DNA of 64,000 bases from a virus (IMGVR_UViG_3300050821_006746:32001-96000); one strand, 5' to 3'; numbered from the stretch's first letter, positions 873 to 61,476 are shown. Notes: generated by a model from the letters alone, not told the origin. Numbers and translations: made by a program.

Positions 873-892
873 GGCAGAATCATAGCATATCA

Positions 893-1288
893 ATGCAAAT
901 CGTTCAACAAAGGAGCACTATGGAAGAGATTAGACAAAACGATCGGGTACAGGTTGTAGGCATGTGGCCTGATAGTGCAAGAGGCTATGTCAAGCATATC
1001 ACCACGATTGGTGATATGGCTTATGTGGTCTTTGACAAGGTGCAACAGGCCAATGAGGAAGAGGATCACAACTGGTACGAGTACAACTGGTACACGGAAG
1101 AGCACCTGCTGAAAATCGAAAGCCTCAAGTTAGGTGATCGTGTCGAGATCATAGCAGAATGGCCTATTGGTGTGATGGGTACTACTGGCCAAAGGAGCAA
1201 CGATATGATCTGGGTTACGTTTGACCAGGAGCAAGATGGCAGTGATGGAGGCTGGTATCGAGAAGCACATTTGAATAAAATCGTGTAG
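893..1288 (+). CDS. Protein with two tandem SH3/KOW-like repeats
   Basis: Internal duplication DRVxV...WP...VxFD...WYxExHLxKI. Confidence 0.65.
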   Translation: MQIVQQRSTMEEIRQNDRVQVVGMWPDSARGYVKHITTIGDMAYVVFDKVQQANEEEDHNWYEYNWYTEEHLLKIESLKLGDRVEIIAEWPIGVMGTTGQRSNDMIWVTFDQEQDGSDGGWYREAHLNKIV

Positions 1289-1391
1289 AGCGTCAAACAG
1301 CCGTCACGCGGTCTTCCAAGAAACGTGACGGCCATTCTCATCCGGGCACCCACTAGTGTCACCTGGCTAGGGTGTCCAAAGAAAGTATACT

Positions 1392-1646
1392 ATGACTACC
1401 CAAATCAAGCAAGCTGGCTTGCACCTGAGCGCACCAATAGACAACTGCGTTGGCAGGCAATATCGTGTGTCAGATGAGTACTGGACGGAGATCGTGACAA
1501 TCGCCAATGGCTGCGTTCACTGCTCATGTGAGCGACATGAGCACATGGCAGAATGTGAGCACATCATGGTTGTCGAGAAGAGAGAAGAAGAGTATCGTAG
1601 TGAGACACAACGTAGGCTTGAGTATTGTTCGTTATTTGAAGTATAG
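1392..1646 (+). CDS. SWIM-type zinc finger protein
   Basis: CSC-x8-CEH motif. Confidence 0.55.
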   Translation: MTTQIKQAGLHLSAPIDNCVGRQYRVSDEYWTEIVTIANGCVHCSCERHEHMAECEHIMVVEKREEEYRSETQRRLEYCSLFEV

Positions 1647-3323
1647 AAAGTGAATGATATGAGTGTAGAAGTAACAATAGGCGTAAGCACACGAGTAAAA
1701 GCTGATGTGCAATCCTACGGCATCGTAGAAGCCACCGTGATAGCGGTTATTCCAAATGGGGATGGTAGCGACATATATCAACTCGAATGGACCAATACTG
1801 CGTGGCCCAAAGGTGGGACGGCGGTCTCTCGCGATGAGATCATTGAAGTTTTATCAATGGAGGCATAGCATGGATCTCAAATATACCCGTAAAAAGCTCT
1901 CGGAAGCCGCTATGCGCGCAGAGCACGCAAGGACACTCCCACACGACGACAAGGTATTCCACGCCTTTACAGCGGCAATGGGCGCACTATACGCTTGCTT
2001 TGAGTGGCTGCCCGATGATTTGCAGGCTGATGCGAGACAGGCATACGATGCGTTGAATGCCACATTGGAGGAAGATGTCAATGGATGAGCATACAGTCTA
2101 CGCCGCTATAGAGCAAGGTGAGACGGAGTGGCTGGCCCGCATCCTCGAAGCAGACAAAGAGCCATACTACTTCGTGCCAGGCGGTATCTATAGCGGTATT
2201 GCTATGTTGTTCAAGAGCCTGCTGTGCAAGGCACTGAATAATGCATATATGGATGTGGTAATTGTGAGCGAGGATCTGTTTAATCGTAAGGTAGTTGAGC
2301 GAGAGGCACCTGATCTGCTGATTGAGCAGAATATGACACTACCGTAGAAAGAATAAACGCATGAGCGAATATCAAGACCTGAACATGAACAAATACTACA
2401 ACCCGATGGACGAGAACAAAATTTTCGCTTTACCAACGGATACTGTAACCGAACACCCAGACGCACAGGGGAATAAGACGCTTTACATTACCCGACTGCT
2501 TCCCAATGGGAGTCAAATGAACGCTACCACTAAACCTGATAGGACAATCATTTGTAATTGGCATGAATTTTATTGGCAGGAGCTAGAAAGCTATTAATTG
2601 CGGGTTGGTAGACTGCTGTTTGGCGCTTCAGTGTCAGATAGCAGCCTGTCAATTGGCAGGATGGAAGGGCCACTCTCTACTGAGCAGAATGAGAGTGGCC
2701 GCAGAGAGATGAGACGCAATCGTTGGAAGCGAGGTAGCATCTCAGGAGGATTGTATTATGCGAGAGCATAAAAAGCAAGAAACTACCACAGAACATCCCA
2801 CACCACAACAATGGGCTATCACACTCAAAGAGTACGAGATTGCCTTCTCAGATCGTCATTTCTGCCTGACATGCAGTCAATGGGTAGAAGATGAAGGGCA
2901 CGAATGCGCAGAGAGGCAGGCCGCATAATGAGCAGGAAGGAACTCACTCAATTTGTAAACGATGAGGCACTCGTTGATCTGCTGTACACGTCGCTAGAAG
3001 AAGCACATCCTATCGATTGTGAGTGCGCCTGGTGCAACGCTGAGCAAGGACGCGAGCAAGGCGATGGATCTCACGGTATTTGCGGGTATCACCGCGAAGA
3101 AGTCTATCAAGCGTACAAATCGAGTCGTGTGGCATAATGGACGATAAAACTCTTAGCGAGATTGAAACGCGTTTACGTCACGTTGAACAGGATCTCACTT
3201 CAATGCGCGAAGATCTCCAGAAATACGGAGAAGTGCAGGCGATAAGGGATCTGGCAATCGTCAACCTTGCCATCGATATAGAGCGAGTACAGGCGGTACG
3301 TGACATGATTGGCAATTGAACGA

Positions 3324-3357
3324 TATGAGAGCAGGCGCTTGATCGCCTGCTCTCATA
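3324..3357. terminator. Bidirectional hairpin terminator
   Basis: Perfect 14-bp inverted repeat TATGAGAGCAGGCG/CGCCTGCTCTCATA between convergent blocks. Confidence 0.75.
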
Positions 3358-3555
3358 CTATCCGAGTCTTGTTTGTATAGTTGCATATTTCTTTAATGCA
3401 TAGTACACTTGATACGATTTACAAAACATTTTCACGTACACTAACTATACGTGACCTAAGAATGGTGACTCAAATTTTTTTGCGTACTTTCAACTGTGGT
3501 AGGGAGCAAGCACACAAAAAATCGACCGAGCCGCCTTTTCTTTTTGGCTACTTTC

Positions 3556-4371
3556 TCAGGCTTTTTGTCCAGAGATCATCAGTGCATCGATAAACATCTC
3601 GAAGCCTGGTGCCTCAAAGTCGCTGAACACCTGTGCTTTGATGCTTTCAAAAGCCTCCTCATCAAGCACTTCAAAAAGTACTGGTTTAAAAACCTCAAAC
3701 ACGCTGCGCAAATCGGAGAGGAACCCCTCGCGTCCTTCTATGCCAACGCTCAAATCAAGCACGTATGGCTTTTGCTGGATATTGACGAGTCCCAACGCGC
3801 CAAATATCTTAGCAAACTGGTCAACCTGTGCGTAAGATGTCCCCCGTCTTTGGAGCGCCTCCATGAAATATCCATTCCAACGCTGGAGCGCGTCGCTATT
3901 GGAGTGAGGGGGCTGCTTGAAATCGATCACGCAAAATGTAGCACCTGGCTTGAGCAAATGCGCACAGTCCGCGAATATTTCCTGCACTCGTGAACCAAGA
4001 AACCAGCATGCACAACGCATCTGGATATAATCAAACGCCTTTACTTTGCCGCTTGATTTTGCGATATCAAACATATCGCCCTGTTTGTAAGTGATATTCA
4101 CATGCTCTGTGGACGCAAGGGCACGCGCATAATCTAGCAAGAGGGCACTCTTATCCAGGCCAACACACTCAGCATTTGGATAAGCGTGCGCTACTCTTCT
4201 GAGCCATCCTCCTGTGCCGCAAGCCACATCTAGTACACGTTTAGGATGCATGTATCCTGTAAAAAAGAGTGGGAAGAGATCATTGAGCAATTCGTCTTGT
4301 AAACTGAGTCTCCTTGCCTCATCAGCGTCGCTAGGAGGGATAGGATACTGACCTTGCCTGCTGTTTTGCAT
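3556..4371 (-). CDS. Class I SAM-dependent methyltransferase (LaeA-like)
   Basis: VLDVACGTGGW motif I, VGLD, FDYIQMR, LKPG; N-terminal DEARRLSLQD; likely start at 4371. Confidence 0.88.
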   Translation of the reverse strand: MQNSRQGQYPIPPSDADEARRLSLQDELLNDLFPLFFTGYMHPKRVLDVACGTGGWLRRVAHAYPNAECVGLDKSALLLDYARALASTEHVNITYKQGDMFDIAKSSGKVKAFDYIQMRCACWFLGSRVQEIFADCAHLLKPGATFCVIDFKQPPHSNSDALQRWNGYFMEALQRRGTSYAQVDQFAKIFGALGLVNIQQKPYVLDLSVGIEGREGFLSDLRSVFEVFKPVLFEVLDEEAFESIKAQVFSDFEAPGFEMFIDALMISGQKA

Positions 4372-4387
4372 ATCGCCTTCTTTCGTA

Positions 4388-5386: not shown

Positions 5387-5413
5387 CGATATTGCACGTG
5401 GAGGTTTGGCTAT

Positions 5414-5918: not shown

Positions 5919-6158
5919 ATGCCTAGCACAATGATCCAATCTGATATGCCCGTTGTTTTGGGGCATGAAGATGATATCCTCCTAACATTCAAAGAAACCA
6001 TGAAGATGTTGCGTCTTTCTCGCTCTGGTTTGTATCGCGAGATGTGGGATGGCAACATTACGGGATACAAAATCGGGTCAACCTGGAGGTTTTACCGAAA
6101 TGACGCAAGACAGTTACTGCGCCAGGTAATCTACCATCCCGAAAAACGCCCAGCTTAA
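5919..6158 (+). CDS. Excisionase-like HTH_17 DNA-binding protein
   Basis: LLTFKETMKMLRLSRSGLY...GYKIGSTWRF. Confidence 0.85.
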   Translation: MPSTMIQSDMPVVLGHEDDILLTFKETMKMLRLSRSGLYREMWDGNITGYKIGSTWRFYRNDARQLLRQVIYHPEKRPA

Positions 6159-6220
6159 CCCACACACTTACGATTTTTAATCGTGTGAATAGCCATATTA
6201 TCGGCTATCCTGATTAAACC

Positions 6221-6249
6221 TTGTACTATCAGGATCAATATGCTATTCT
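6221..6249 (+). promoter_or_regulatory. Sigma70-type promoter
   Basis: TTGTAC-17-TATTCT with TG extension. Confidence 0.55.
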
Positions 6250-6298
6250 TCTGTCATTCGCTGTTTACAGTGACACAGCAAAGGAGATAACCGCCTTG

Positions 6299-6487
6299 AT
6301 GGCAGAAGAATGGATAACAGTGAACACCATCAGTGCCGAGCTTGGAATAAGCACTGAGAGCGTTCGCAAATACATCAACAAACCAGATGGTATAGTGGCT
6401 ACTCTTGTGGGCAACTCATACCGCATCAAACGTAAAGACTACGAAGACTGGCAGAAAAGACAGGAAGGCAAAAAGAAGAAAACTTAG
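6299..6487 (+). CDS. Excisionase-like HTH_17 protein
   Basis: WITVNTISAELGISTESVRKYI...VGNSYRI; AAGGAG SD. Confidence 0.85.
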   Translation: MAEEWITVNTISAELGISTESVRKYINKPDGIVATLVGNSYRIKRKDYEDWQKRQEGKKKKT

Positions 6488-6683
6488 TGACCGTCAAAAG
6501 AGCAAAAAGATAGCGCCGCCACCTCCTACAGTTTCGGCGCAATCGTCGGCATTCTCATACCTGGCTGGATAGATACTTATCAGGCTTACGCCTTCGGGCA
6601 CAAAAAAGCACAGGCCATCAAACCTCTGCTCCGCCTCAATTTCAGTGACGAGGTTTGTGTCCAGATAAGTCACTATGCTGCAT

Positions 6684-6712
6684 AGCATACGTGTTGAATG
6701 ACCGATTGTCAA
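6684..6712 (-). promoter_or_regulatory. Antisense sigma70 promoter
   Basis: TTGACA-17-TATGCT on the minus strand. Confidence 0.65.
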
Positions 6713-6766
6713 GAATTTGGGCAAAAAATCTGAGGCAAAGAGCGCCCCTGACGGTCATTAGAGAGC

Positions 6767-6985
6767 ATGAGAGACAAAAGAAGAAATGAGAACTATCTTA
6801 CTGTAAAGCAGATAGCAACAATACTTGGCGTATCAGAAAAAAGGGTGCGAGATTACATCAAAAATGAAGGACTCACACCAAAGAAAACACGAGGACGTAA
6901 ACCGTACTTAGTGCATGTAGATGTGTTTAACGCATGGCTTGAGACGCGTACAACATCTGAAGGAGAGAGCAGCGATGACGAATAG
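6767..6985 (+). CDS. Excisionase-like HTH_17 protein
   Basis: YLTVKQIATILGVSEKRVRDYIKNEGL. Confidence 0.85.
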   Translation: MRDKRRNENYLTVKQIATILGVSEKRVRDYIKNEGLTPKKTRGRKPYLVHVDVFNAWLETRTTSEGESSDDE

Positions 6986-7303
6986 GCTATATATGGCAAT
7001 CACCAAAGCAATTATCGTTGTCTCTCTCCTCGTGTTGGCAGTTATCAACACCGCTAAACGCTGGCAATCCCGCAAGGAGCACCACGAAGTGCAACCTACA
7101 CCACAGGATTGCCAGCAACAACAAGAAATAGCCTCCATTATCGAGGAAGAATTTCAGCGAGAAGAGAATTTCAAGGTGTGGTACGCGCAACGCATGGATG
7201 CATCACGCATTATCTTGCCAGAGAAGCAGGTACGCAGGCTCTACGAGACGTATCTGAGCAATGAGAAAATTATCAAATCGCGAGTAGTCAGTGAGGTAGC
7301 AGA

Positions 7304-7513
7304 TTGAAACGACAAGAGAAAAAGACCATCGAAATGCGGGTGTACGTCCCGCAAGGCATACACCGCCTGCTAGTCCAGAGACAGAACAATAATAAGCAAT
7401 TAGACAAGCCCTTCAAGTCGCTATCAGATTTTGCTCTAGATGCGCTGATAGATGGCCTATTTCGAGAAGCGTACTGCGAACAATTGCAAAAAATGAAAGA
7501 GCAACGGACATGA
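7304..7513 (+). CDS. Ribbon-helix-helix-like regulator
   Basis: Alternating strand EMRVYVP followed by helices ending SLSDFALDAL. Confidence 0.5.
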   Translation: MKRQEKKTIEMRVYVPQGIHRLLVQRQNNNKQLDKPFKSLSDFALDALIDGLFREAYCEQLQKMKEQRT

Positions 7514-8467
7514 GTGTAGTTGCAGACCCCCAATACGAGGCAACAGAACCGATGGTATCCGTGTTCTCCCAGAGCGGCGTAGATCATCCTGTTGTCTTAC
7601 CAGAGCTGGTATTACCAGCGCAAGCGCAACCTGCTATCACGCACGACGCACATACGCGACTAGATGACCTCCTATGCGTCAAGCAAATGCAGCAAGGTTT
7701 CAAACTTGACATCATTGCCGTGTGGCTGGCTATTCCGTTGCTTTTCGGTTTAGTCGGTTGTGCCTGGGTCTTATTTATTGCTCAATTTTTCAGATTTTTT
7801 AGTTGATTAGGAGTATTCATGCACGAAGAATTAATTATAGTTGCCTACGATCTCCTGAGCAGTTACGTATTGCCAGGAAAAGCCTACGATGTGCTTGAAG
7901 CACTGGCGTACAGATCATCAATAGTAGATCTGGAACAAGAAGATCCTGATGACATTAATTATAACAAATTGAGAGTTAGTGCCATGAAAGACGCCGTATC
8001 TGCTCTGCACGCTGCGCACAAAAAATGGGACGAAGAAGCCAGCAAGCGACAATCCTTTGCCATTATCGATCCCATTTGGAACGAAGTGGAGATGCAAGCT
8101 TGACTACCACAACACGAGTGCCCTACCGCAAAGTCGATGTGCTAGCACTGCGCATTGACCCCAAGCGAACCTGTGATGTAGTCGAGGACCAGCCAGACGG
8201 CGCTACACACGTCAAAGTACGGTGGTTCGGTAAGACGATAGAAGAATACATCAGAAACGAAGATGTCATGCCACTTGGGCAAAGGCCGATAGAAGAGGTA
8301 ATATGAGCCATTTTGACTAGCGAAACACATACCAATTGGTACGCCTACACGCACTGATAGGTACGTGCTTATGAGTCACAGTAAATCAATATTAATCTGG
8401 AATGATTCCGCTCAGCGGAAAATTGGTAAAAATTAAGTAGAAGAAAGTACCAGGCAGGAGTTGAGAA

Positions 8468-11195: not shown

Positions 11196-11435
11196 TCAAG
11201 CTGCTATGGATTTACGAGGAGGCTCTACCAGCGTACTCAAGTCAACTTCAAGCGCTCTGGCCAACTTGATAAGCGTTTCTCTTCGTGGCATTCGCCTACC
11301 ATTCTCAATAGTACTGATCGTATCAACATCAACATCTGCCCTAGTTGCCAAATCAACCTGTGTCATGAGACGGCTTTCTCTCACTTCTCGCAGGCGGAAC
11401 TTCGCCCCTACAGGTCTCTTTCGTGGTCTACCCAT
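11196..11435 (-). CDS. XRE-family HTH regulator
   Basis: LREVRESRLMTQVDLA...TISTIENGRRMP...LIKLARAL. Confidence 0.92.
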   Translation of the reverse strand: MGRPRKRPVGAKFRLREVRESRLMTQVDLATRADVDVDTISTIENGRRMPRRETLIKLARALEVDLSTLVEPPRKSIAA

Positions 11436-11561
11436 GTGTTATGTATCTCCTCATCGCTTATGTGGTTTGTGGTCTCTGAACATTTTCGGTGTATTTCTCT
11501 CAAGTTTAAATCACTGCCAAACAAAATTCAAGCCCAACTATCGAATGTACGTGTATTCACC

Positions 11562-11590
11562 TTGACAAACTTAGTGCAATCATGTAAGAT
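11562..11590 (+). promoter_or_regulatory. Sigma70 promoter divergent from the XRE gene
   Basis: TTGACA-17-TAAGAT. Confidence 0.7.
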
Positions 11591-12594
11591 ATCTAGAAAG
11601 AAAATCCGTTAAATTGCTAAGGAGACAATCAATGAGCAAAATCACGCCTGATCAAGAAACGTTCCTTGCTTTCGTAGCAAGTGAGATCGCAGGTCAGGAA
11701 CGCCTCAATCAATTCGCGACATACGAAGCTTTGAAGTGTATTTGCGAATACTATAATCACCCTACCGAATCAACAGCGCTTGACCTGTACTTTTTCTTGC
11801 GTACCCATGACGAAAGCAGGGCAATGGTCCACCAATTCAGGGAATACACACGAACACATCAGTTAAACGAAAACGATACCACCGTCAATCGCCAATTCAC
11901 ACCCGACGACAAAATTAGCATGGTCAAGGGCGCTATTATCGGTGCATTGGGCGGTGGTCACATCGATGGACGCGACGGGGCAAGTTATTGCAAGGCCGTG
12001 CTAGCAAGCATCGCTGAGATCCTCGATATCACTATCCCAGAAGATCTCAAGGCGGCAAACGGACTGCACTAGGAGCGCAACAATGAAAACAATCGATCAA
12101 CTCAGCAAATCGGGCCTGCGCAAACGTCGCCAGCATATCATGACCATGCCGTTGACGCCTGTCCGTGCTGAGAAAATCCGGCAAATTGAGGCGAGAGAGT
12201 GGGAGTTGTATCGAGAGGAGAATCCGCCAGTGAAGGCGCCTGCAAATTTTTTTGTACGGGAAGAGGAGTGGTAAATGAGATTCAAAGTACGAACCGCCGT
12301 CCAATTGACGCAAGAGCAACTGGCCACGCTGCAACGTCATGGTTGCAGGCCCATACCCTATATCACATGGGACCATGAATGGGTCTTTGCAGCGTATTGC
12401 GAGGATGGACAAGAGCAAGAATTGCGCAATCAGGCATGGCGCAAGCGGCGCGAACACAACCGCAAAATGATGTACTTCTTTGCTCTAATGGAGCAAGAGA
12501 CGGTCTCGCTGCAAGGCACGATGGTTGCTCTTGCTGAGGTCTACGTGGATGCCGCCCAGATGGCTGCAACGAACACAAAGAAGGAGCAAGAAGC

Positions 12595-17077: not shown

Positions 17078-17106
17078 TTGACTTCGTTAGATCAGTGTGT
17101 TATCAT
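17078..17106 (+). promoter_or_regulatory. Sigma70 promoter
   Basis: TTGACT-17-TATCAT. Confidence 0.65.
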
Positions 17107-17132: not shown

Positions 17133-17333
17133 ATGTTTATGGCAGAAATAGCGTACACGCCAGAGGAGGTAGCAAAGAGGCTCAGCATCACGCCGCGCAT
17201 GGCAACAGAGTATCTACGAACGGGCAAAATACCGGGTGGGTACAAGGTAGCTGGTCAGTGGAGAATAGACGAGCCAGACCTCACGAACTTTATAACAGAG
17301 CAGAAGCGCAAGGCTTCACAAAAGGACTCATAG
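17133..17333 (+). CDS. Excisionase-like HTH_17 protein
   Basis: YTPEEVAKRLSITPRMATEYLRTGKIPGGYKVAGQWRI. Confidence 0.88.
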   Translation: MFMAEIAYTPEEVAKRLSITPRMATEYLRTGKIPGGYKVAGQWRIDEPDLTNFITEQKRKASQKDS

Positions 17334-17464
17334 GGGTTATCCCCAAAAACGACATTGAGCCACCTAAACTTTGGCGAGTAGCAGGTGGCCCATGAACAAA
17401 GATCTCAGCAGAACGTTTAATGCGTTCTGACGAGCGACTTTGTGTCCATTCACTGGACAAATTA

Positions 17465-17493
17465 ACTATACACTATCCGGCAAGCCGCGTCAA
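17465..17493 (-). promoter_or_regulatory. Antisense sigma70 promoter
   Basis: TTGACG-17-TATAGT on the minus strand. Confidence 0.65.
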
Positions 17494-20400
17494 GGTGAAA
17501 CACCAACGACGACTTGAAACAGCGAGACACATACAAGCGAAAGAAGGAGAGCGATGAGCACACAACCAACGCCATTGATGATTAAAACTCTAGAGCAAAT
17601 TGGGAACGACACCGTAACTGGATGGGGCTACAACAACAACCCGAATGGACAGCGCAACCTCAATGCCAACATAACCCACGCATTGATTAAACGTGGACTG
17701 CTAGAGCCTGCTGGTGAAATGTCATGGAGTGGGCAGAACACGCCTGTGTACCGTCTCTCTGAGTCAGGGAAGCAAGCATTGAGTGCTGCACTACCGCCCA
17801 CGACACCGAAAGATGAGTCTTGGAAATTAGTGTTTGCGAGAGGTGAACAATGGGCATAACAAAAATCACGTCAGCGCAACAGCAGATCCTCAACCAAATG
17901 CGCAGAGGCTATGCGCTCATTTCTCATATGGACACCAAATACCGTTCATTCAACATGCCTGCTGAGCATGGCGGATACCTGCTCAACACAGCGTCTTGTG
18001 CCATGAAGCCCGTTCTTCTCTCGACAATTAAAGCCATGCTTGGTAAAAATCTGATTGCCGAGGAAAAGCGCTATGTCTCATCAGATGGCTTCTGTGGTGA
18101 ACACCAGACGGAGAGGTGGCGCATTCACTACAAACTCAACCTGTGCATTCACTGCTATGAGCAGCCTGCTAGCGATCAGTTCAATGGCATGTTCTGCGCT
18201 GCATGCGCCAATGAGATGGGTGAGCAGTGGGAAACCGAACAAAACGAGCGTGTGAAGGAGATGGCGCAATGAACAAAAGAATGATCACGGCTATTACACC
18301 CAGGTCTGATTTTGTTGAGGTCGATCTAGCCTGTGGGCACACAATACGGTGGTTCCCGTTTAGCGAACAAACCCCTCAGCAATTGGCAGAGCACATGCAA
18401 AACCTAACACCCAAGCCAATACAAGTAGGCAAGACAAAGTTAAATTGCAAGGAGTGCACACAATGAGCAACGAAGAACGACAAGTATCGTGGATTGGCAC
18501 ACTCCACGTCACGTACAAAGCAGGCGATACCGGTATGATTATCCCCGAATATATCCTTGCCCGCATGACACCAGAACTGGTAGCAAGCGAATTGGAAAGC
18601 ATCGCACGACAAATCAGAGACGGTCAAGTACCGGATCAAGTCAAGCCGATCGATGAGGTTGATATTCTCCACCTGCGGCAAATTGCAGAGTGGCTAGAGC
18701 AACGCTATGGCACATCCAAGGAAACCATCGCGCTCCAGCCACAAGCGAAAGGACAACAACAATGATTACTGACGAGGCGATACTACAAGCAATCGAATAC
18801 AGGATGGATCAGTTAAACGCAACATTCAGCCTTGAGGATGGGCACATTTGCAGCAATAACGCTGATCTAGGAACCATTTCAAAAGTGTATCATCTTCCAC
18901 TTCATTGTCTTGCCCAACTAATCTGGAAAAGTAAGGAAGAGGCAGAGGTGAAAGCATGACACCAATCACAGCCGCCGCCACTATCCAGCGCATTGCTGAC
19001 AGTGGACTCGATATCAGCACTGAGGATTATCGGGCACTGGTAGAGGTTGCCCAATGGCTAGCGACGTTGCAAGAGCCAGTGAGCACGGAACTTGACGACA
19101 TAATTGACACACTCGACGAAACAATTGATGAGATTGTAGATACCATCCTTGACGACAACAATGTTGACACCCTCAACGATGAAGAAAGAGTTTCGCCAGA
19201 AACGTGGCTTTCTGCAAAAACAGAAATTTTGGCATTGTTGGCTCAGCGCAAGGAGAAGGCACAATGAGCAAACTCAGTTTCGCTTGTGGTCACACCGAAG
19301 AGCAAGAGCACGCACTGGTCAATGAGTTCTTTGACGGCTTGCGCGCTTACATGAAACAGTGTGGGCGCTTCATGGGCAAGCCGATTGCCGAGAACTGGCA
19401 AACACTCGACGAGCAAGCAAAAGATCACCACATTAATGTTCTGTTTGTGCGCCATGCGGTTACGCTCACAAAGTTGGCACACGACGCGATACACGAGGCG
19501 ACAAAAGCATGAACCACGAAGGCAAGCACTACATACACACCACTAAAGCGTGGTACTACGCTGATTGGGCACCACAGGAGTGGCAAGACGAAATTCGCTT
19601 TTTCACAGAGGGATCGGGAGCAATGTACATGCGCTGGTATGCTCGTCCCAACTTAACATCACGTTTAGAGGTGAACATAGGCGAGATGTATGCACTGACG
19701 ACACAAACGGAACTACTTTCAACGTTGGCTCACATTGCTGTGAGCGGCGAGAAAATGGCACCCGATGATTTTCGCGAGATCCTTGAGGAATGTGGTTTTG
19801 TGGATAGCACGCCTCTTACACAAAAAGGGCACCCCAACGAGGAGACACAATCATGATAGGGTTATCAGACATCGCAGAACAGGGCGAAGAATCGGGAAGA
19901 GAAGAAGCGGCATGTGATTATCCGTTCCTTCCTGATCCTCTAGATTATCGAGAATTGCGTCAATATGGGCGTGGTCGTGCGCAAGGCTTATACCGATTAC
20001 GCGGCAAAGCAGCACGTGTGTTTGCGCACAACTGGTCTATAGGCTACATAGCTGAGTGCAATTTATATAAACTGGTTTGCTCAGCAGAATTGCAGGAGGC
20101 GCAATCATGATAACACTCACCACAGGTGCACATCTCGCCAGTGTGCGAGAACGCCTCACAGCGCCGCTAGACGAGCAAAGCTATAACGACCTGGCAGTGG
20201 TAGCGCTCTTCTACTCGACGCACGCCACGACTGAGCAGCGTGTTGAGGCGGCATTGCTCTATGTGGAGGTGGTTCGCAAGGCGGCAGAGGCGAGACGAGC
20301 AACGCGACAAGATGATATAGCATGACACGTTGACATAATGTTGAGACAAGCGAGCAGTAAGGATAGCAACATGGAACAAGAGAAGCCACTCACAATCGAG

Positions 20401-20782
20401 CAGCGCATTACTCGTATCCGCCAATGTATGCAGGCTGCGGGCGAGGATTGCGTAGCATTGGGTAATCAGTGGAGCGAGTTTGGCGATTGGAACAATGGGC
20501 CACGCTTCTCTGTTCGCAGTCAGATAATGCCTGAGAATATGCAGGAAGCCACAAAGGAGACGCCACAAAATGCAATTTGAGCAAGCAACCAAGAACCTGA
20601 CAGATCGCACTGACTGCAACCCGAATGATTATGAGGCAATTCAATACTTCCTCATCGAGTTTGCGGAGCACATTCTTATGCATACTACACCTGCGGCAGG
20701 GAGCACGATCAAGAAGTATCAGGGGATGTCTGTAGAGCAAATCGTGGTGGCTCTTCCCGATATGCCAGAAATGGAGTGACCT

Positions 20783-21208
20783 ATGAGCAGAGAACTACTT
20801 TTCCGCGCCTGGACTGGCAAGACGATGATGTACCAAGATCGGCAATACTTGGGATCATTCATCCGTCGCGTGGTCATACAAGTCTTGATGGATCACGATT
20901 TTCCCGAAGCGATGAAGCGCAAAAGCTACTTGCCCAAAGGGACCAAAATTGACGATTATCTCATGCAATACATCAACAATGAGGATATCTGCGGCAAAAA
21001 AATCTACGACGAGGACATTGTGATGCTACGTGGTAGCAACTACCCGACGCGCTATCAAGTGTACTGGAATGTGGATCAGTGGGACGTGAAAGATGCTCAG
21101 GGCAATGGCTATGATCGTGGCTACTACGAGAGTGGCTCTATTAACTGGAGAAGTGGCTTGGAAGTTATCGGCAATATGCGCGAAACCCCTAACTTACTCA
21201 ACAATTAG
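20783..21208 (+). CDS. YopX-family protein
   Basis: RELLFRAW, LMQY...GKKIYDEDIV, LEVIGNMRETPNLL. Confidence 0.88.
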   Translation: MSRELLFRAWTGKTMMYQDRQYLGSFIRRVVIQVLMDHDFPEAMKRKSYLPKGTKIDDYLMQYINNEDICGKKIYDEDIVMLRGSNYPTRYQVYWNVDQWDVKDAQGNGYDRGYYESGSINWRSGLEVIGNMRETPNLLNN

Positions 21209-21286
21209 CCTGCCCTACGGCAGTGTACATAGAGGTGTCCAGTGACCACCAACATCAGCGCCCAGCGCGCATATGATACAATCGAC

Positions 21287-21329
21287 TTGACATTAGCCAA
21301 CAGATCAAGTAAAATGGCATTAGCCAACA
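21287..21329 (+). promoter_or_regulatory. Sigma70 promoter with direct-repeat operator
   Basis: TTGACA-17-TAAAAT; CATTAGCCAACA at 21291 and 21318. Confidence 0.7.
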
Positions 21330-21338
21330 AGGAGAATA

Positions 21339-21566
21339 ATGGATTTGGAAGCAGTAAAGGAGATCATCTCTTCGCAGGGATGGACACCGCAGGAAAGGAA
21401 GAAGCAGAGAGGGACGCTCTATTTGTACGCTGCCAAATGGGATGTAGAGGAACAAAAAACCATGTGGCGATACATTTGTGCGATATCCCAGGCGGAATAT
21501 CTCACAGAGGAGCAAATACTAGCAACACTCAGCAGACCACCGAGAACAAAAAGAAAGCCAGCTTAG
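21339..21566 (+). CDS. Small protein with basic tail, probable autoregulator
   Basis: Own promoter, AAGGAG SD, flanking repeats. Confidence 0.6.
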   Translation: MDLEAVKEIISSQGWTPQERKKQRGTLYLYAAKWDVEEQKTMWRYICAISQAEYLTEEQILATLSRPPRTKRKPA

Positions 21567-21784
21567 CGCTGGCTAATGATAACAGCGACCCGCCATTGGT
21601 TGGCACCCTACGCGGGCCGTAAAACAAACTGAACCGCCAGGCAACGTGTTCAGCGTTGTCTAGAGGCTACGTGCGCCTTGTGATAGGCACATTGTTCATT
21701 TTACCTGATTGAACAAAGGAATGCAAGGATGGTAGCGAAATCGTGACGAATATTCCAGCAAATCAAAAATCATTGTCTTACCCC

Positions 21785-21813
21785 TTGACATTTGCGTTCG
21801 TATCGAATACAAT
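21785..21813 (+). promoter_or_regulatory. Sigma70 promoter upstream of the methylase/replication block
   Basis: TTGACA-17-TACAAT. Confidence 0.7.
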
Positions 21814-33579: not shown

Positions 33580-33792
33580 ATGAGCGATATTGACTTGAAG
33601 AATAGCTTTCTTCCCGACGAAGCTGCTAAGTACCTGGGGATTAACGTCCAGAAGCTCAATAGATTAAGGCGTTTAGGCCGTCTACATGGTACTCAGGTAG
33701 GAACAACCAATCTTTTTACATATACCTTGGACGATCTGAGAAAAGCAGATTTGTCTGAAAAGAAGCGAGGACCAAAACCACATGGCACTTGA
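33580..33792 (+). CDS. HTH_17/MerR-like regulator
   Basis: FLPDEAAKYLGINVQKLNRLRRLGRL...KRGPKP. Confidence 0.8.
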   Translation: MSDIDLKNSFLPDEAAKYLGINVQKLNRLRRLGRLHGTQVGTTNLFTYTLDDLRKADLSEKKRGPKPHGT

Positions 33793-37050: not shown

Positions 37051-40003
37051 TAAGCCTACTCGTTTGGTTATTCTAAAATTTGTGGCGTATTTGCGAGCCT
37101 GGATATCTGTTTATCCAAAGAGTATGCTATGAGTAGACGTGAGCAGAATAGCATATCTCGACATCCTGTGCAAGAGCAATCAGCCAAACAGGCTACTACT
37201 CTAAATCTGGCAGCGGTATTGTGTTGCTGAGTTCCAGACATTCTCGTACATCGTAGAGCGGTGTGATTATCGGCTTTTTGCCCATATAGGGGTTGTATAT
37301 GTATGCCGATGGCTCTTGTGTAACTACACGATTGGTGGCTTCTACCTCTTCCTTGCGCATCAGCCATTGCGGTGCGGCGGCATGTGCAAAATAGCACACC
37401 TTGCCGAGACATTGCTCTGCGTTGGCGTCCGTTGCTCTGGTGAAAGTGAGCGTGCAGACAGTGCATCGGTATCTGAGCGTTGGCTTGCCGTAGATATTAT
37501 CTACGTGTTCTCCCACGAGCTGATGTGCGAGGTGCGGTTTGCGGGTAAAGATTTTGAACATGATTATCTCCTGTACTCAGGTGGTGGCAATAGTATCTTA
37601 CAGCCAGGGCACGCCCAAATTCTTGTGTCATTGGCGTAGTACTCATACCATTGCTTGCGGAGCGGGTTTACTTCGGTGGGATCTAAGGCTGCTTGTTCTC
37701 TTTCCGTTGGCGTGCTCATGCTTGCTCCCTCTTTTTCTGTTCTACCAGTGTGGTGCATCGTTCTGGAATACCTTCAACCATTGAAAGTATGTGAAGTGTA
37801 TGTCCTTGTCGATCGCCTTCAGGAAAATACTTTTCTACGCTTTCTTTAATTTGAGCCAATGCCCCTGACAAGAATCGCATGTGGTTTATTATCTCTTCTT
37901 TATCGTCTGGCGTTATCTTACTCATTAGTGCTCCTTCATTCTCCAGTGGATTGTCTCTTGCAACGCCTGATTAGGCGAGAAGCCTAACCGTCCATCCATG
38001 CGCTTATTGCGATAGCCGAAGTAACGGCATAAGAGGAGAAATAGTGCATTTTCGTCGATGTCGAGTGCTTCTAGCACTTCAATATTTTCGCGGTCTTCGT
38101 CACTGAGTTTCATTAGTGCTCCTCTTCTCGTCTTTGTGCATCCATAGTCAATCTGGTCAAGTAGCGATGCCAGTCCCATTTACGATCCTCCGAATAAATC
38201 CAGCCTGGCAACACTACGCCGGGACCTATTTTGCTGTCTCTCGTGTCGTTGTTGTAGACAAGCGTGTCAATTGCCATCGCTAAGGCTGTGCGGTAGACAC
38301 GCAACTCTTCCTCTGGGCTACTATAACCAGAATTGTATCTATCACTCAGTTTCCACCGAAGATCAGCAAGATTTCTGTTTTGGTCTTCGGTGCCGTCTGT
38401 AAAAGAATTGTGAATCATGATTGTGCTCCTTGCTCTGACTCAGGATCTATCTTTTCGCCCAAATACCGCATGAGCACCCAGTCCGCGCCCACTTTCCGTG
38501 TAGGGTCGTAGTCTTCGGGCGTGCCATTCCATTCCTCGATAGCCTTGAGCAGCGATTGTCGCTCTTTGTCGGGGAGAAAACTGAGATCAAAGTCATTGCA
38601 CCCATGATTGCTATATTGATCGGATGCGAGATCAAGCAACATTGCTATGAGTTTGCGTTCATAGGATTTGAGTCTTGCCATTAATGTGTCCCTTTATTTG
38701 CTCTACGTTTCTTCTTCAACCCGAAATGATAAATCCATTGCTCAGTTTGTATGTGAAACCAGCAGTACACGCCACTATTCGGGCATATGGGCATCTCTTT
38801 GCCGGATTCCAGGCAGAGTGGACAAAGTTGCTTTTTCATCAATGTGCTCCCTTTAAACATGGACATGGTAGTTATCGCTACAGTCATACATGAGAGCGAA
38901 CTCGCTTCCGTTGCAGTTTTCAATGTGATGCATTGCAATATCTTTTAGCCCATCTAATTCGTAAAATTGGATGATACTTCGCGAAAGCGCAAGGTCAAAG
39001 CCTCTTTGCCGATTTGTTTTAAGTCTTGCGGCAATGACTGGCATTCGATCATGCACGCGATAAACGATGGTTATGGTAAAGTCGTGCTCTTCTATGAGTG
39101 TTGTGAGCGTTTGTATGATGTCCTCTTCATTCATGACGTGCTCCCTTTAGCCTCGCCTCAAGTTCTGCGATTTGCTTCTCGTACTTCTGTGCTCCCTCCT
39201 GATAAGTGAGCATGTTCTTGCATGCGCTCTCCGCTCGTTTTTGTGCATCTTGCAATTCGTGTTGCAGTTCTCTCAGGTTCTCCCAATCTGAACCGCTTTT
39301 CTTGATCCACTCTTCCAACGTGCCTTCGGGATCTCGCATGTACTCAGCAATGTCTTTGGCGGCATTGGCTGCTACTTGTGACTGTGAGAGATCACCGCAA
39401 TAATCACTGTACTCTCTGATAAAAGGTTGCTGGTCTTTGCGTGCAGGCGGATACGTGACAGTGCAATCTGTTTTGCTGTCACCATCATAGTTGCTGTGCG
39501 TGTAGATGATGTGGATATCAAATTCGTGTACTTCGGTTGGCATGGGTTAATTCTCCTGTTTCAGTGCCATTCGCTCAATATAGCTGCGTGATGCCTCTCC
39601 CTCTGCTGTGGTAGCAGGGACAACTCGCACAGCCACAGCCACGCTATTGTCATTATCCGAGTATGGTACCTGCCAATCCTCTGTTTGCATGGTGTTGTTA
39701 GCGTTATGGAATACATCTGTTACGATAAAGAGGAGTGGCGTTTGATGCGGCAAGTCCTCGCCCGTTGGGGTGCGTATATGAGCAGTGAGACGAAGCGAGA
39801 TCTTTTCTCCAATGCGCGGAACAACGGGCGAGCGATACGCACCAATCTCTACTATGACCCCGGTTCTGTCATTCACTGCCTCTAAATAAATATCCATGTA
39901 TATGCTCCTTTACTCTATGCCGAGCAATGCGGCCAATTGATCGCCATGCTTGTTCTCTGCTCGTTTCAGACTTGCCAGATAGCGGCCTGTGGTTGCGAGT
40001 GAT

Positions 40004-40939
40004 TTAATACATGTTATCCGTTTTACCGGCTTCCAGTTCATCTAGTACATAATGGTCTACGGTTGTTTGTATTCTTTTGTGCCTTAAAGCTTTTTGGGCG
40101 AGTCTGATATCTTCTTTGGCTAAGATCGTGCCTACGAAGCGCCGAAAGTCATGCGGCTTAATATGCTCCAATTCACAACGACTGGCGTACTTTTGCACTG
40201 CATTCCAGATTGCTTGAGGTGTGATTGGTTTAAGGAGTATTTTTTCTCCTCTGCCCGTGAATGACGTAAAGATGTATTCGCATTCTATTGGACGTGCTAT
40301 AAGCCATGCTGTTATGGATGTGTGCGCCTCTTTGCTCAGGAAGGCGCTTACTGGCTTGATCTCGTTCTTGCCGCGTACTTTCAGCACATAGCCACCTTCT
40401 TGCTCCTCTATCTGGCTTTGTTTGAGTGTTGCCAGTTCGCTAGCTCGTATGCCAGAACTGGCAAGGGTATGGAGTAGAGCGCGGTCACGCAATCCTACCA
40501 GTGTAGCCGTGTTTGGCATCTCGCAGAGACGGCGCATATCCTCTGGTTTGATGCGAGTTCTAGCGTGTGGTTTGAGTTTGTCAGGATCGATCTTGACGCC
40601 TTCAATGTCTCTGAACTCTTCATAGATGGACCTGTCAATGAGTTTTCGTTTTTGAGCCTCTTTTATTATGCGTTTGATTGCTGACATCATACGATTGATC
40701 GTGTTGCTACTTTTGAAGGTTCCATCCTCTTGAGGCGTTAGAAGCATCCAATCGCGCCACTCTCGCATGGTTTGCGCGTCCATAATGTCTAGCTCTTTCT
40801 CTGATGCGAAATGCTGATAACTAGAAATGGAGTACTTGTACATTTTAATAGAAGAGTCAGCCAGATCATAGGTGAGCCAGTTTTGTAAATTCTGGCTCAC
40901 TGTATGGAGTGCGCTGTGTGGTACAAGTTGCCGATCCAT
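40004..40939 (-). CDS. Tyrosine recombinase (Xer/Cre-like, no arm-binding domain)
   Basis: RDRALL..SSGIRASEL, GK, PHDFRR, LRHK, HY; start at 40939 after GGAGG, coupled to the upstream stop. Confidence 0.93.
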   Translation of the reverse strand: MDRQLVPHSALHTVSQNLQNWLTYDLADSSIKMYKYSISSYQHFASEKELDIMDAQTMREWRDWMLLTPQEDGTFKSSNTINRMMSAIKRIIKEAQKRKLIDRSIYEEFRDIEGVKIDPDKLKPHARTRIKPEDMRRLCEMPNTATLVGLRDRALLHTLASSGIRASELATLKQSQIEEQEGGYVLKVRGKNEIKPVSAFLSKEAHTSITAWLIARPIECEYIFTSFTGRGEKILLKPITPQAIWNAVQKYASRCELEHIKPHDFRRFVGTILAKEDIRLAQKALRHKRIQTTVDHYVLDELEAGKTDNMY

Positions 40940-42868: not shown

Positions 42869-42927
42869 TTTACAAGTGACCATTTTGGGCCTATAATACA
42901 AAGTGTTGTGACCGAAAATGGTCACTT
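42869..42927 (+). promoter_or_regulatory. Promoter with 13-bp inverted-repeat operator
   Basis: TTTACA-17-TATAAT; AAGTGACCATTTT (42874) / AAAATGGTCACTT (42915). Confidence 0.65.
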
Positions 42928-55082: not shown

Positions 55083-55099
55083 AGAAGGAGCAATAAATC

Positions 55100-55660: not shown

Positions 55661-55734
55661 ATGAACGCTGTTCTGGGAAGCGAAAGAAGCATTTCTCCTC
55701 GCTTCCCAGACGGATATGCCAGGAGGGCATCTAA

Positions 55735-58308: not shown

Positions 58309-58536
58309 ATGGATGACAGAAAACAGGGGCTAGTAGATCGGATCAACAACGACTTCGTGTATCATCAGCCGAAGCCAGGTCAAGCAGAGCGCTATGTCCA
58401 GTTACGAGATAAGGCAAAGGAACTAGCCTTGCTCATTGTTGATCTGACGCCAATCTCACGTGAGCAGTCGTTAGCATTGACTGAACTGGAGAAGTCAATC
58501 TTTTTCGCAAACGCATCTATTGCTCGCAACGAGTAG
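58309..58536 (+). CDS. Acb2/Tad1 hairpin-domain-like protein
   Basis: FVYHQP...RYVQLRDKAKELA...SREQSLALTELEKSIFFANASIAR. Confidence 0.7.
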   Translation: MDDRKQGLVDRINNDFVYHQPKPGQAERYVQLRDKAKELALLIVDLTPISREQSLALTELEKSIFFANASIARNE

Positions 58537-59399
58537 GAGTGTGATATGAAATATCGCTGGTCTCATCCACCGAAGATCAAGCCACTTGCAATATAGTGGC
58601 GATCGGAAAGGTGAGTATGCATGAGAAAGATGCTCAAGAGGAAAAGCAAATCATTATGTGTAATGTGCAAATACTACAAGACCAATGGCGGGTGTAGGTG
58701 GACAGACAAAGAGAGAGATGCAATTAAACGATTTGCGAGAGCAGTCAAAGAACAACGATGCGAAGATTTGTAAGGAAGGGCAATCATGTTCACGCCATAT
58801 AAGAACCACACCACGAGGCTAGCCGCTACCATGTACGCGCCATGTGCAAGCGTTGGCTGTATTGAGCACGCCAAGCCTGAGAACGCCATAGAGGCAAAAC
58901 TAGACATCTTTGGCTCTCCACTGGTGCATGTGTGCTTCTGTGATGGTCATTATGGTTTTCTGATGGGCGATACAGCGGAGCATGAGATTATACCGGATAT
59001 TGCGGTAGAGGAGAAACCACTACACACAGGCGGCATTGCCATTGTTGGCGAAGCTGGTAACGATGAAATCGTGTATCTGCCACAAGGCAGTAGCGTTTAT
59101 CCAGTGGCTAAGGAGTAGGTATGGGGCAAGGCATCATCTCAGTAAGCAGCGCAATGTTTGAGGAGCGAGAGCAACCGCGAACATTGGCAGAATGGCATGC
59201 ATTGCTGATGTTGCCAGTGGAGTACAGAGTGCTTGAGGCGAAGGCTGATGCTATGTATCCGCTCTGGCTTATCACTGTGGAGAATGATGCTATTCCAGTG
59301 GTCAAGGGTAAGAAGTTGTCGAAAGGGTATTATCTTGAGCGTATCGAGATCGACAAGCCAAAGAAACGTGTAATTTGGTCACGAGAGGAGCAAGCATAA

Positions 59400-59789
59400 A
59401 TGGCGCGAGATGTGCATATTGACGCTGGCTACTTTAACAAGCCAATCCAGTTCCAGTCCGAGCAAACTACTCCTGATGGATCAGGTGGTAGTACAGCAAC
59501 GGGATGGACAACTGCTTATAAGTGCATGGCTCATATCGATAATCTTACCGATTCGACAACAGCGATTAGACGCATAGCAACACGGCCATTTCAGTTCATG
59601 CAGCTCTATCCTCAGATGGACGCATTGATGTCTATACGCTATCAAGCAAGCACGGCGCTTACACCAGCAATGACCATACTTTATAGAAATCGACGATATC
59701 AAATTATTGATTTGATTACTCCACATGAGGAGTTAGTTGCGATTGTAATACCCGTAGTGCTCTATCAAGCGCCTGGTACACCGGGATAA
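59400..59789 (+). CDS. Head closure protein (SPP1 gp16-like)
   Basis: AGYFNKPIQFQ...PDGSGG...W, IRY...MTILYRNRRYQI. Confidence 0.85.
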   Translation: MARDVHIDAGYFNKPIQFQSEQTTPDGSGGSTATGWTTAYKCMAHIDNLTDSTTAIRRIATRPFQFMQLYPQMDALMSIRYQASTALTPAMTILYRNRRYQIIDLITPHEELVAIVIPVVLYQAPGTPG

Positions 59790-59798
59790 GGGGGTAGT

Positions 59799-60224
59799 AT
59801 GACGATTGTAGGCGGATCATCGCTGCTTCCAACACAGGAGGCGGTCTACACGGTACTCACTGGCAATGCAGGCTTTACTAGCATCTGCGCAGGTCCTTTC
59901 GATCCAGCCCCGATAAATCAGGCGTTTCCTTATAGTGCGTTTGGGGCACATACCGAGTCCGCTTGGTATCAATTCCAGAAAACCAGCAAGCAGATTGATT
60001 TCGTTATTCATGTTTATAGCAAGCAACCAACATTTGCAGAAGCGATGACCATCTTGAATGTGATTAATGGCTTGATCGAGGGACAAACGCTGAGTTTAAC
60101 AAGCGGGAATTACACCAACGCTGAGAATGGTGTGCTATTTGTTAGTGCTCGCAAGGTTGAGGAGCCTGATGGACTCACACGACATCTCGAATGTAGATGG
60201 CATATCTATAACAATGCCAACTAG
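59799..60224 (+). CDS. Tail terminator (DUF3168-like)
   Basis: QEAVYTVL, PFDPAP...FPY, IHVYSK, EPDGLTRH. Confidence 0.82.
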   Translation: MTIVGGSSLLPTQEAVYTVLTGNAGFTSICAGPFDPAPINQAFPYSAFGAHTESAWYQFQKTSKQIDFVIHVYSKQPTFAEAMTILNVINGLIEGQTLSLTSGNYTNAENGVLFVSARKVEEPDGLTRHLECRWHIYNNAN

Positions 60225-60763
60225 GAGGCGTGACGCAATGACACCAGAACAAGAACAGGCACTCACTGACAAGATGGCTGGTATCGGCTACCCAGATTTC
60301 GATGTGATGCCAGGCGAAGAGAGTGTGCTCATGCTCCATGTACAGAGTAAGCTGATTGGTGGCACGCTCTATGCATTGGGATTGCCAGATGAGCAGTTGA
60401 AGGCACTGATTGATGAGACGGTGGCAGGAGGACAAAGCTGATGGGCGCAATCCGATTGGAGCACGCAAAGGGTAGGAATTTCACTGCTGAGGAGTTGGTT
60501 GGGCGACAAATCAGGATTGAAGGGCCAGTTCCTAAGAGGGGAACGCAGCCTATTGGGTACAACATGCTGATCGTTGCCGATGATGAGAGTATCGATAATG
60601 CGTGCAAGCTTGAGTTGAGCATAGAGCCTGATGCTGTAATTGAAGCAAGGGTGACGCTCTATCGCTTTGACTTGGCAACCGCAGAAGAACGTGTGCCGAC
60701 TGAGGTGGTTACGCTGAGGGATAACATCGAAGTGTCGTTCTCTGCTATCGTATCGGAGGTGGA

Positions 60764-61171
60764 ATGATGGGCGCAAGAGTCATTATCGAATGGGATGGGT
60801 TGGAGCAGGTAATCTCCAATCTCGCGGATCTTGGGGAGAAAGCACCGCAGAACCTTGAGCATCAGATGGCAGAACTGGCAAGCGCAACGGAGGATGCATG
60901 GAAAGAGAGCACGCCGCGACGAACGGGCAGGCTGCAAGAAGCAGATATCGTGGAGACGGGTGGCATGTCATTTACGCTGAATAATGCTACCCGGTACTAC
61001 GATTGGGTAGATCGGGGGCACATGACTCCAGCAGGTTGGCGTACCAGACATGGCTATCGTCCCGCCAAACGCCGGTCTCATGTTGAGGGGCAAGAGATGA
61101 CTGATAAGGCTGTTCAGTTTATTGAGGAGAATATTGAGGATTATCTCTCGAAGTTCTTGGATAACATATAG
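60764..61171 (+). CDS. HK97 gp10-like tail-completion protein
   Basis: IEWDGLEQ, TPRRTGRLQ, YYDWVDRGH. Confidence 0.8.
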   Translation: MMGARVIIEWDGLEQVISNLADLGEKAPQNLEHQMAELASATEDAWKESTPRRTGRLQEADIVETGGMSFTLNNATRYYDWVDRGHMTPAGWRTRHGYRPAKRRSHVEGQEMTDKAVQFIEENIEDYLSKFLDNI

Positions 61172-61179
61172 GTGTTGCA

Positions 61180-61377
61180 ATGGAGAATTCAGTAAAAATA
61201 CATTGCGAAACAACAGGGAAGCTCCTTGCGCGCCGTGATGAGAATGGCGTTTATTTATGGTGCAAAGAATGTAAGGTTGAGCATTTTATTTCGTGGGTTC
61301 CCAAAGATAACAAGAGTGAGGAAAATGCCGATAAAGTAGTTTCTGGAGAGGTTTTATGCTATAATCTGAGTATATAA
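61180..61377 (+). CDS. Mu Com-like zinc-ribbon protein
   Basis: IHCETTGKLLAR...LWCKECKVEH. Confidence 0.6.
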   Translation: MENSVKIHCETTGKLLARRDENGVYLWCKECKVEHFISWVPKDNKSEENADKVVSGEVLCYNLSI

Positions 61378-61476
61378 ATTGTGTGCCTCTGCAAGTGCGC
61401 TAACACTCCAGAGGCCGACCCTGAGTGTAAGTTCAAGGCAAGGTTATTATACCTTGTTAGGAAAGGGGTTTCTACC

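Follow-up and report, generated by a model that had tools for sequence, protein, structure and literature searches.

Candidate convergent antisense RNA genes behind small regulator genes in an uncultivated temperate phage

The window analyzed here is a 64,000-nucleotide stretch of viral DNA, bases 32001-96000 of a 109,141-bp IMG/VR virus record (IMGVR_UViG_3300050821_006746) with a 97-bp terminal repeat, and it comes from a tailed, temperate, uncultivated phage. Small, tightly packed early genes on the plus strand fill its first 30 kb (1-30 kb). An earlier note on this DNA had described at least seven modules along it, each consisting of a minus-strand sigma70 promoter at or just before the start of a plus-strand gene and a hairpin-rich leader, and had joined them into a distributed antisense layer. 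The subject of this report is these seven sites, above all the two that lie behind small regulator genes at 6.6 and 17.4 kb. Promoters were scored throughout in bits of a standard sigma70 position weight matrix (PWM).

The 6.6-kb and 17.4-kb gaps

The gap at 6.6 kb (6488-6790) follows a plus-strand HTH_17 (Xis/MerR-like) regulator gene at 6299-6487 (Pfam HTH_17, E=1.7e-5; PHROG 66), whose own plus-strand promoter at 6221-6249 is weak (9.3 bits, with a TG extension); the operon downstream of the gap spans 6767-8306. The sole promoter-like site in the gap is the minus-strand pair at 6712-6684 (TTGACA-17-TATGCT, 14.3 bits). Its predicted start lies near 6677, and its -10 box overlaps the inverted repeat TATGCT-gcat-AGCATA (6674-6689). 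A structured RNA of about 180 nt without an open reading frame (ORF) is predicted from there on the minus strand (6494-6677; fold -65.6 kcal/mol, z -2.4). It would carry the 5'-proximal motif UGGACACAAA-c-CUCGUC (6663-6647), then a first hairpin with a U-run (about 6633-6600), and finally a canonical intrinsic terminator, whose stem (6544-6509) has a GCGCCG/CGGCGC core and whose U-run (6508-6495) lies 8-10 nt past the stop codon of gene 6299-6487. The sole minus-strand ORF in this gap has a GTG/TTG start and no Shine-Dalgarno (SD) sequence, and the 76-amino-acid (aa) minus-strand frame has no homologue except itself.

At 17.4 kb the upstream gene is again of the HTH_17 family (17133-17333, plus strand; Pfam HTH_17, E=3.6e-9; DNA-binding and excisionase families in PHROGs) and is driven by a strong, TG-extended plus-strand promoter at 17078-17106 (TTGACT-17-TATCAT, 15.0 bits). 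The phage encodes five such small paralogous HTH_17 genes, 18-28% identical to one another: three stand consecutively at 5.9-7.0 kb (5919-6985), and the others are 17133-17333 and 33580-33792. Facing gene 17133-17333, the minus-strand site at 17493-17465 (TTGACG-17-TATAGT, 15.3 bits) is the best promoter match in 1-20 kb and the sole promoter-like site in the gap 17334-17580, with a predicted start near 17458 directed at the HTH_17 gene; the downstream operon extends over 17554-21208. The predicted minus-strand RNA (17340-17458) would be a structured, ORF-less molecule of 60-120 nt (z -4.0 on the minus strand, -4.7 on the plus strand) that includes the inverted repeat TTGTCCA-N5-TGGACA and, at 17448-17430, the motif UGGACACAAA-gucg-CUCGUC. 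Two terminator-like hairpins follow on the same strand. One, at 17434-17404, is succeeded by a U-run (17434-17394 overall), and the other has an 11-bp stem-loop at 17391-17357 and a U-run at 17350-17341 (U5, 6 nt from the stem), about 8 nt past the stop codon of 17133-17333. On the plus strand, the stem-loop 17357-17391 displays an exact UUGGCG hexaloop (17371-17376), the single instance found. No credible ORF, in the sense of an SD sequence with an ATG, occurs on either strand of the 17.4-kb gap, nor in the gaps at 6.6 and 21.6 kb.

The two gaps have more in common than a promoter and a position. In minus-strand alignment, the 6.6-kb site reads TATGCT-N20-TGGACACAAA-c-CTCGTC and the 17.4-kb site TATAGT-N16-TGGACACAAA-gtcg-CTCGTC, and the exact 10-mer TTTGTGTCCA is present in both of these units and nowhere else within 109 kb. 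The copies of TTTGTGTCCA lie 16-20 nt downstream of the -10 box, and CTCGTC then follows at 30-31 nt. The earlier observation that the two gaps share GACGAG..TTTGTGTCCA is thus confirmed, and because the pair was chosen on promoter score alone, a common 10-mer and 6-mer at matching distance are very unlikely to have arisen by chance. Searched in IMG/VR, GACGAG-N1-5-TTTGTGTCCA returned 44 single, scattered matches, in line with chance. Lying just downstream of both starts, TGGACACAAA..CTCGTC is an element that the two units have in common, be it an operator or a 5' RNA element, while TATGCT-gcat-AGCATA and TTGTCCA-N5-TGGACA, which overlap or follow the promoters, could be operators. In both RNAs the 5' CACAAA pairs with the U-rich tail past the first hairpin. 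In both units transcription would begin 90-96 nt ahead of the downstream gene's start codon and run away from it, and both RNAs would end 8-16 nt past the upstream stop codons, short of the coding 3' end. In these two gaps and in that of a third candidate at 21.6 kb (see below), base pairs in general and G.U pairs in particular are more numerous in the minus-strand folds than in the plus-strand ones.

Related sequences occur elsewhere in the phage. A perfect palindrome, CTGGACACAAC-TG-TTGTGTCCAG, lies at 63361-63385 inside gene 62696-63472, and GTTGTGTCCAG lies at 63503-63512 in the gap after that gene; both resemble TTTGTGTCCA. Inverted repeats of the form TATGCT-N4..21-AGCATA number three genome-wide, all intergenic, where about 0.35 would be expected from hexamer counts; they lie at 6674-6689, at 37123-37155 and at genome base ~18245 (window coordinate -13755). 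The 7-mer TAGCATA, intergenic in 10 of its 15 copies, forms with them a candidate operator family.

All seven claimed -35/-10 pairs with 17-bp spacers were found in the sequence where they had been placed, the uniform spacing being a product of the way the sites were picked. The five besides those above, all likewise on the minus strand, score 12.8 bits (907-879, TTGAAC-17-TATGAT), 12.4 bits (61474-61446, TAGAAA/TATAAT), 11.1 bits (21726-21698, TTGCAT-17-TAAAAT), 10.9 bits (2778-2750, TTGCTT/TACAAT) and 10.4 bits (1412-1384, TTGCTT/TATACT). The phage's own promoters provide a standard for these values: 16 strong sense sites, almost without exception TTGACA-17-TAnnnT and for the most part situated 20-50 nt before a start codon, have -35 boxes that match TTGACA at five or six of six positions, and 25 sites genome-wide reach at least 13 bits, 18 of them in gaps. 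The sites at 6712-6684 and 17493-17465 are built to this pattern, flanking "cacc/attc" context included. The other five fall outside it, with -35 boxes (TTGAAC, TTGCTT, TTGCTT, TTGCAT and TAGAAA) that match at only three or four positions; those at 1412, 2778 and 21726 match at three and are absent from the consensus-scan listing.

Comparison with shuffled sequence leads to the same division. Promoter-like sites show no general excess, the consensus scan giving 21 against 25.9±4.9 in shuffles for 1-20 kb, 39 against 25.6±4.8 for 20-40 kb and 14 against 25.0±5.4 for 44-64 kb. Within the window's 24 "++" gaps, minus-strand matches of at least 10.4 bits, a cut-off chosen post hoc, number seven against 2.6±1.6 (P~0.02); there are three against 0.64 at 12 bits or more and two against 0.13 at 14 bits or more. 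Over the 48 co-directional gaps genome-wide, antisense matches at rising cut-offs number 11 against 5.75 (P=0.05) and three against 1.28 (P=0.15), and at 14 bits or more two are found against 0.19 expected, a count reached in 0/100 shuffles. Minus-strand operons hold no comparable antisense matches except one that overlaps a sense promoter. Of the claimed promoters, then, those at 6712-6684 and 17493-17465 exceed chance and the other five do not.

The remaining five sites and the genome around them

A layout like that of the two strong units is possible at 21.6 kb. Here a strong plus-strand promoter (21287-21315, TTGACA-17-TAAAAT, 16.5-16.7 bits) precedes a plus-strand gene with a good SD sequence (21339-21566) for a charged 75-aa protein that has no Pfam or PHROG match. 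A longer GTG-start ORF, 21242-21622, is probably not the gene, as the promoter and the SD sequence favor 21339-21566, which is in another frame. The candidate third RNA, on the minus strand, would be about 145 nt long with four hairpins (21546-21726 including its promoter; z -3.6) and would end at a canonical terminator (stem 21574-21556, U-run to about 21546) that has the stop codon of 21339-21566 in its loop. It would reach about 20 nt into that gene and is the only one of the three units to overlap the upstream coding region. The gap also has a strong plus-strand promoter at 21785-21813. The earlier statement that three modules directly follow small self-promoted genes therefore stands, for 6299-6487 and 17133-17333 as HTH_17 genes and for 21339-21566 as a gene with no family match.

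A third strong orphan promoter (TTGACA-17-TATGAT, 15.9 bits) was noticed outside the window, at about 19613-19735 of the genome (window coordinates -12387 to -12265). It overlaps the stop codon of a 60-aa plus-strand gene, and with the bidirectional terminator behind it forms an ORF-less unit, about 85 nt long, within a convergent gap.

At the four other sites (907, 1412, 2778 and 61474) the hexamers are matches at chance level or belong to ordinary features. The first, 907-879, has a TG-extended -10 box and lies in a divergent gap beside the minus-strand gene 353-604, with a strong bidirectional hairpin at 685-725 (-27.6 kcal/mol) in the leader toward that gene; it is most simply the promoter and leader of gene 353-604 and not antisense to a plus-strand gene. 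No Rfam 15 family matches the window at its gathering score, and in 500-22000 at E<=1 the only hit is Thr_leader on the 685-725 hairpin, at 25.6 bits against a gathering score of 55. The hexamers of 1412-1384, at chance level, overlap the start codon at 1392, and those of 2778-2750 overlap the start codon at 2758. In the latter case the preceding 2598-2757 is the sense leader of a 56-aa Cys-rich gene and contains a G.U-rich hairpin of about 27 bp and a 10-bp hairpin; this 2.6-kb gap is the most structured of the window, folding at -67.5 kcal/mol on the plus strand against -46.0 on the minus strand (z -6.0/-5.1, 10 against 3 G.U pairs). At 61.4 kb, a plus-strand gene for a NUMOD3-DUF559 (homing) endonuclease (61477-62202; Pfam DUF559/NUMOD3) is preceded by its plus-strand sense leader (61357-61476), which has an extended -10 element, TGCTATAAT, at 61357-61365. 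The claimed minus-strand TATAAT lies inside an AAGGT..ACCTT hairpin of this leader and the claimed TAGAAA between the SD sequence and the ATG, and folding of the gap gives -88.4 kcal/mol for the plus and -60.4 for the minus strand.

Around these sites the phage encodes a large terminase, a portal, a prohead protease, an HK97-type capsid protein, methylases, a DnaA/IstB-like loader and, on the minus strand at 40004-40939, a tyrosine integrase. An XRE/HTH_3 gene (11196-11435, minus strand) has back-to-back promoters beside it, at 11531-11503 on the minus and 11562-11590 on the plus strand, so that 11196-11631 looks like a switch region of the CI/Cro type. Two strong promoters are flanked or overlapped by palindromes of the form GACCA-N4-TGGTC. 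There are three good copies, every one intergenic (42869-42925; window coordinates -22209 and -22180), and they are probably a repressor operator common to two distant transcription units.

No near relative was found among deposited phages by megablast against phage records. The best portal matches, Bacillus and Geobacillus phages among them, are about 30-33% identical; a Bacillota host would be in keeping with the strong SD sequences and with promoters of canonical form. Relatives of the major capsid protein in IMG/VR, about 60% identical, are short contigs without common early DNA, and a search of GTDB genomes with the same protein gave none carrying the antisense-unit region. The 101-aa protein of 17554-17859 and its alignment likewise identified no relative with the region in IMG/VR, JGI metagenomes or GTDB genomes, nor did a 546-aa early protein in IMG/VR. 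Logan/ENA contigs of up to 83 kb do carry homologues of the 17554-17859 protein, which are 62-84% identical to it.

Possible roles of the sites

We read the seven sites as a mixed collection in which two, and possibly a third, are small convergent non-coding RNA genes of the lambda OOP kind, and we put the probability of this reading at about 0.5. From the observed promoters, motif, terminators, absence of ORFs and structure, we infer transcription, pairing and a regulatory effect along the following lines. A sigma70-type promoter in the gap after a small, self-promoted plus-strand gene would fire leftward to give a structured, ORF-less RNA of 60-180 nt, which would halt at intrinsic terminators at, or a few bases past, the upstream stop codon. 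There is no plus-strand promoter in the 6.6- and 17.4-kb gaps, and both downstream early operons must therefore be read through from upstream, so that the antisense RNA and its convergent polymerases would pair or collide with the read-through transcript. This transcript would be fully complementary to the small RNA across the gap and could undergo RNase III-type duplex cleavage; transcriptional interference between convergent promoters offers a second possible route. The outcome would be expression that is lowered or uncoupled on either side of the gap. Translation is unlikely to be blocked in the manner of sar or CopA, because the RNAs would start well upstream (90-96 nt) of the gene whose ribosome-binding site (RBS) is concerned and would barely enter the upstream coding sequence. 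A more ambitious version proposes multi-copy, co-regulated gating of the OOP kind, in which each small self-promoted regulator gene has its own convergent antisense RNA and the common UGGACACAAA..CUCGUC 5' element lets one factor, or an RNA-RNA or RNA-protein interaction, coordinately set read-through into separate early operons; this we regard as improbable.

Several points weigh against convergent RNA genes at these sites. The entire evidence comes from a single genome, and spurious antisense promoters are common in bacteria and phages. The terminators at 17.4 kb are non-canonical and only terminator-like, and minus-strand terminators in "++" gaps are not enriched overall (4/3/2 against 2.7/1.2/0.55 expected). 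The promoter of the possible third unit is at chance level (11.1 bits, with three of six -35 positions matched). The predicted RNAs would leave the downstream RBS uncovered and would have hardly any overlap with the upstream coding region. The two strands have much the same structure z-scores, and fold energy therefore does not settle the strand.

That last point is shared by an explanation which dispenses with antisense units altogether and which we consider rather unlikely. The gaps would instead contain sense-strand elements, such as attenuators, processing or stability hairpins, or put/nut-like antitermination sites after regulator genes, and the strong minus-strand promoters would be fortuitous or a matter of pervasive transcription without function. 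The plus-strand folds are as strong by z-score, the structures at 2.6 and 61.4 kb are clearly sense, promoter counts over the whole window equal those of shuffles, minus-strand terminators show no enrichment, and TTTGTGT (site 17423-17436) could be the T-tract of small plus-strand hairpins. What such sense elements do not account for is the pair of matches of at least 14 bits where 0.19 are expected, the motif that both share at a fixed distance and that is unique in the genome, and the leftward orientation of the U-tailed terminators, the plus strand having no U-run. In a switch acting at the level of DNA, the strong promoters, face to face around an HTH_17 gene as in the Cox/Apl-type switches of P2 and 186, would exert control by promoter occlusion and colliding polymerases, with TTTGTGTCCA and the inverted repeats as operators and the RNA without a role. 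The promoters at 17078 and 17493 do converge about 345 bp apart around that gene, TATGCT-N4-AGCATA and TTGTCCA-N5-TGGACA overlap or follow the minus-strand promoters, and the TATGCT..AGCATA repeats are, as noted, in excess and all intergenic. The terminators, however, would stop most leftward polymerases short of the HTH gene, the 6.6-kb unit has no strong facing promoter and the operators are putative, which makes this switch doubtful.

It is scarcely credible that the minus-strand promoters serve to express tiny, nearly leaderless peptides. The frames are there: at 17.4 kb a 10-codon ORF (ATG GAC ACA AAG TCG CTC GTC...) begins at 17450, and at 6.6 kb a frame of 59 codons starts with GTG at 6673. 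Each start codon is 4-8 nt away from where its transcript is predicted to begin, and both frames contain the residues D-T-N/K-(S)-L-V, since the motif halves, 1 and 4 nt apart, keep the frame. Yet neither has an SD sequence, one start is GTG, the lengths are 10 and 59 codons, no homologue is known for either, the 59-codon frame has a low codon score (8.3) and a 3-nt difference in spacing arises by chance one time in three. A coding role for the minus-strand ORFs was rejected for want of homologues and SD sequences.

Very unlikely, finally, is the arrangement proposed in the earlier note, with seven or more antisense-promoter and hairpin-leader modules forming a UUGGCG/YUNR kissing-loop layer that gates early operon segments. 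The hexamers are present, the "++" gaps hold an excess of antisense matches at the 10.4-bit cut-off, many gaps are structured and one exact UUGGCG hexaloop exists. Without the two strong sites, however, five matches remain against about 2.5 expected, with weak -35 boxes unlike those of real phage promoters, and minus-strand operons lack comparable matches, bar the one already mentioned. Five of seven promoters being weak by the phage's own standard and no commoner than in shuffles, a layer gating each early operon segment is unsupported. The hairpins claimed behind the promoters fared better in part: structure is significant in several gaps (z -3.4 to -6), but those at 2.6 and 61.4 kb fold much more stably as sense RNA. 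The TTGG/CCAA loop motifs reported there occur 10 times in the seven leaders against 9.35±2.7 in shuffles, which is chance. No sequence family unites the seven gaps, all-against-all blastn and MAFFT having returned self-hairpins and SD or junction repeats only, and one module is a divergent promoter region and another an endonuclease leader.

Antisense units at 6.6 and 17.4 kb, and perhaps at 21.6 kb, are plausible, yet of an already known kind of phage control. If they are real, they would add further OOP-style cases from an uncultivated, ORFan-rich temperate phage lineage, with one layout reused within one genome behind paralogous HTH_17 regulators, and -10 mutants would then offer an easy way to learn how the long early operons are partitioned. 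If they are not, the sites are a caution that loose -35/-10 matches beside start codons occur at chance and that hairpin-rich gaps can be sense leaders.

Comparison with known antisense systems

P22 sar begins within the downstream gene and masks the RBS of that gene. The RNAs predicted here differ in starting 90-96 nt before the downstream start codon, which leaves the RBS uncovered. They resemble sar, which belongs to immI (Pant-arc-ant), in being small antisense RNAs fired back toward a small self-regulated repressor gene in an operon (PMC12197685).

The earlier note had also likened the modules to plasmid kissing-loop control by CopA/CopT and by the IncI-alpha Inc RNA. One stem-loop, 17357-17391, does carry the exact UUGGCG hexaloop, and a 5'-rUUGGCG-3' loop takes part in IncI-alpha Inc RNA control according to Asano et al. 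1998, as cited in PMC10724649. The differences from CopA and Inc are that this is a single instance, that the other "TTGG/CCAA" loops are different sequences, and that there is no leader-peptide or RBS overlap and no replication-control context. Because a YUNR loop may belong to either the sense or the antisense partner (PMC6562991), the hexaloop at 17371-17376 is compatible with such control and not diagnostic of it. With one UUGGCG loop only, on the plus strand, and antisense RNAs that would run away from the downstream leader and RBS, the kissing-loop analogy does not hold.

Like the type I toxin-antitoxin pairs of Bacillus subtilis prophages (bsrG/SR4, txpA/RatA), the units combine a small gene with a convergent small RNA of about 180 nt that meets its 3' end (PMC6562991). 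A type I toxin-antitoxin system was nevertheless rejected, since the sense genes encode no hydrophobic toxin peptide but hydrophilic HTH_17 proteins and, in one case, a charged protein of 75 aa.

Phage antisense RNAs have several precedents, among them OOP/cII, sar, sas, aQ and c4 (PMC5415839, PMC12197685), and of these lambda OOP offers the closest layout for comparison. It is a 77-nt untranslated RNA with its own sigma70 promoter, antisense to cII, whose duplex is cleaved by RNase III (PMC5415839, PMC12197685). The analogy with OOP, already drawn in the earlier note, is reasonable for the units with strong minus-strand promoters, structured ORF-less RNA and terminators. Like OOP, these lie between a small helix-turn-helix (HTH) regulator gene and the next early genes, are convergent to the early operon and have an intrinsic terminator near the 3' end of the regulator gene. 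Unlike OOP, they are known from sequence alone and have no sequence or Rfam similarity to it, and their RNAs would end 8-16 nt past the stop codon (only that at 21.6 kb about 20 nt inside), whereas OOP ends well inside the coding region. In addition, where lambda has one such RNA behind a CII-type gene, this phage would have two or three copies, behind HTH_17 genes.

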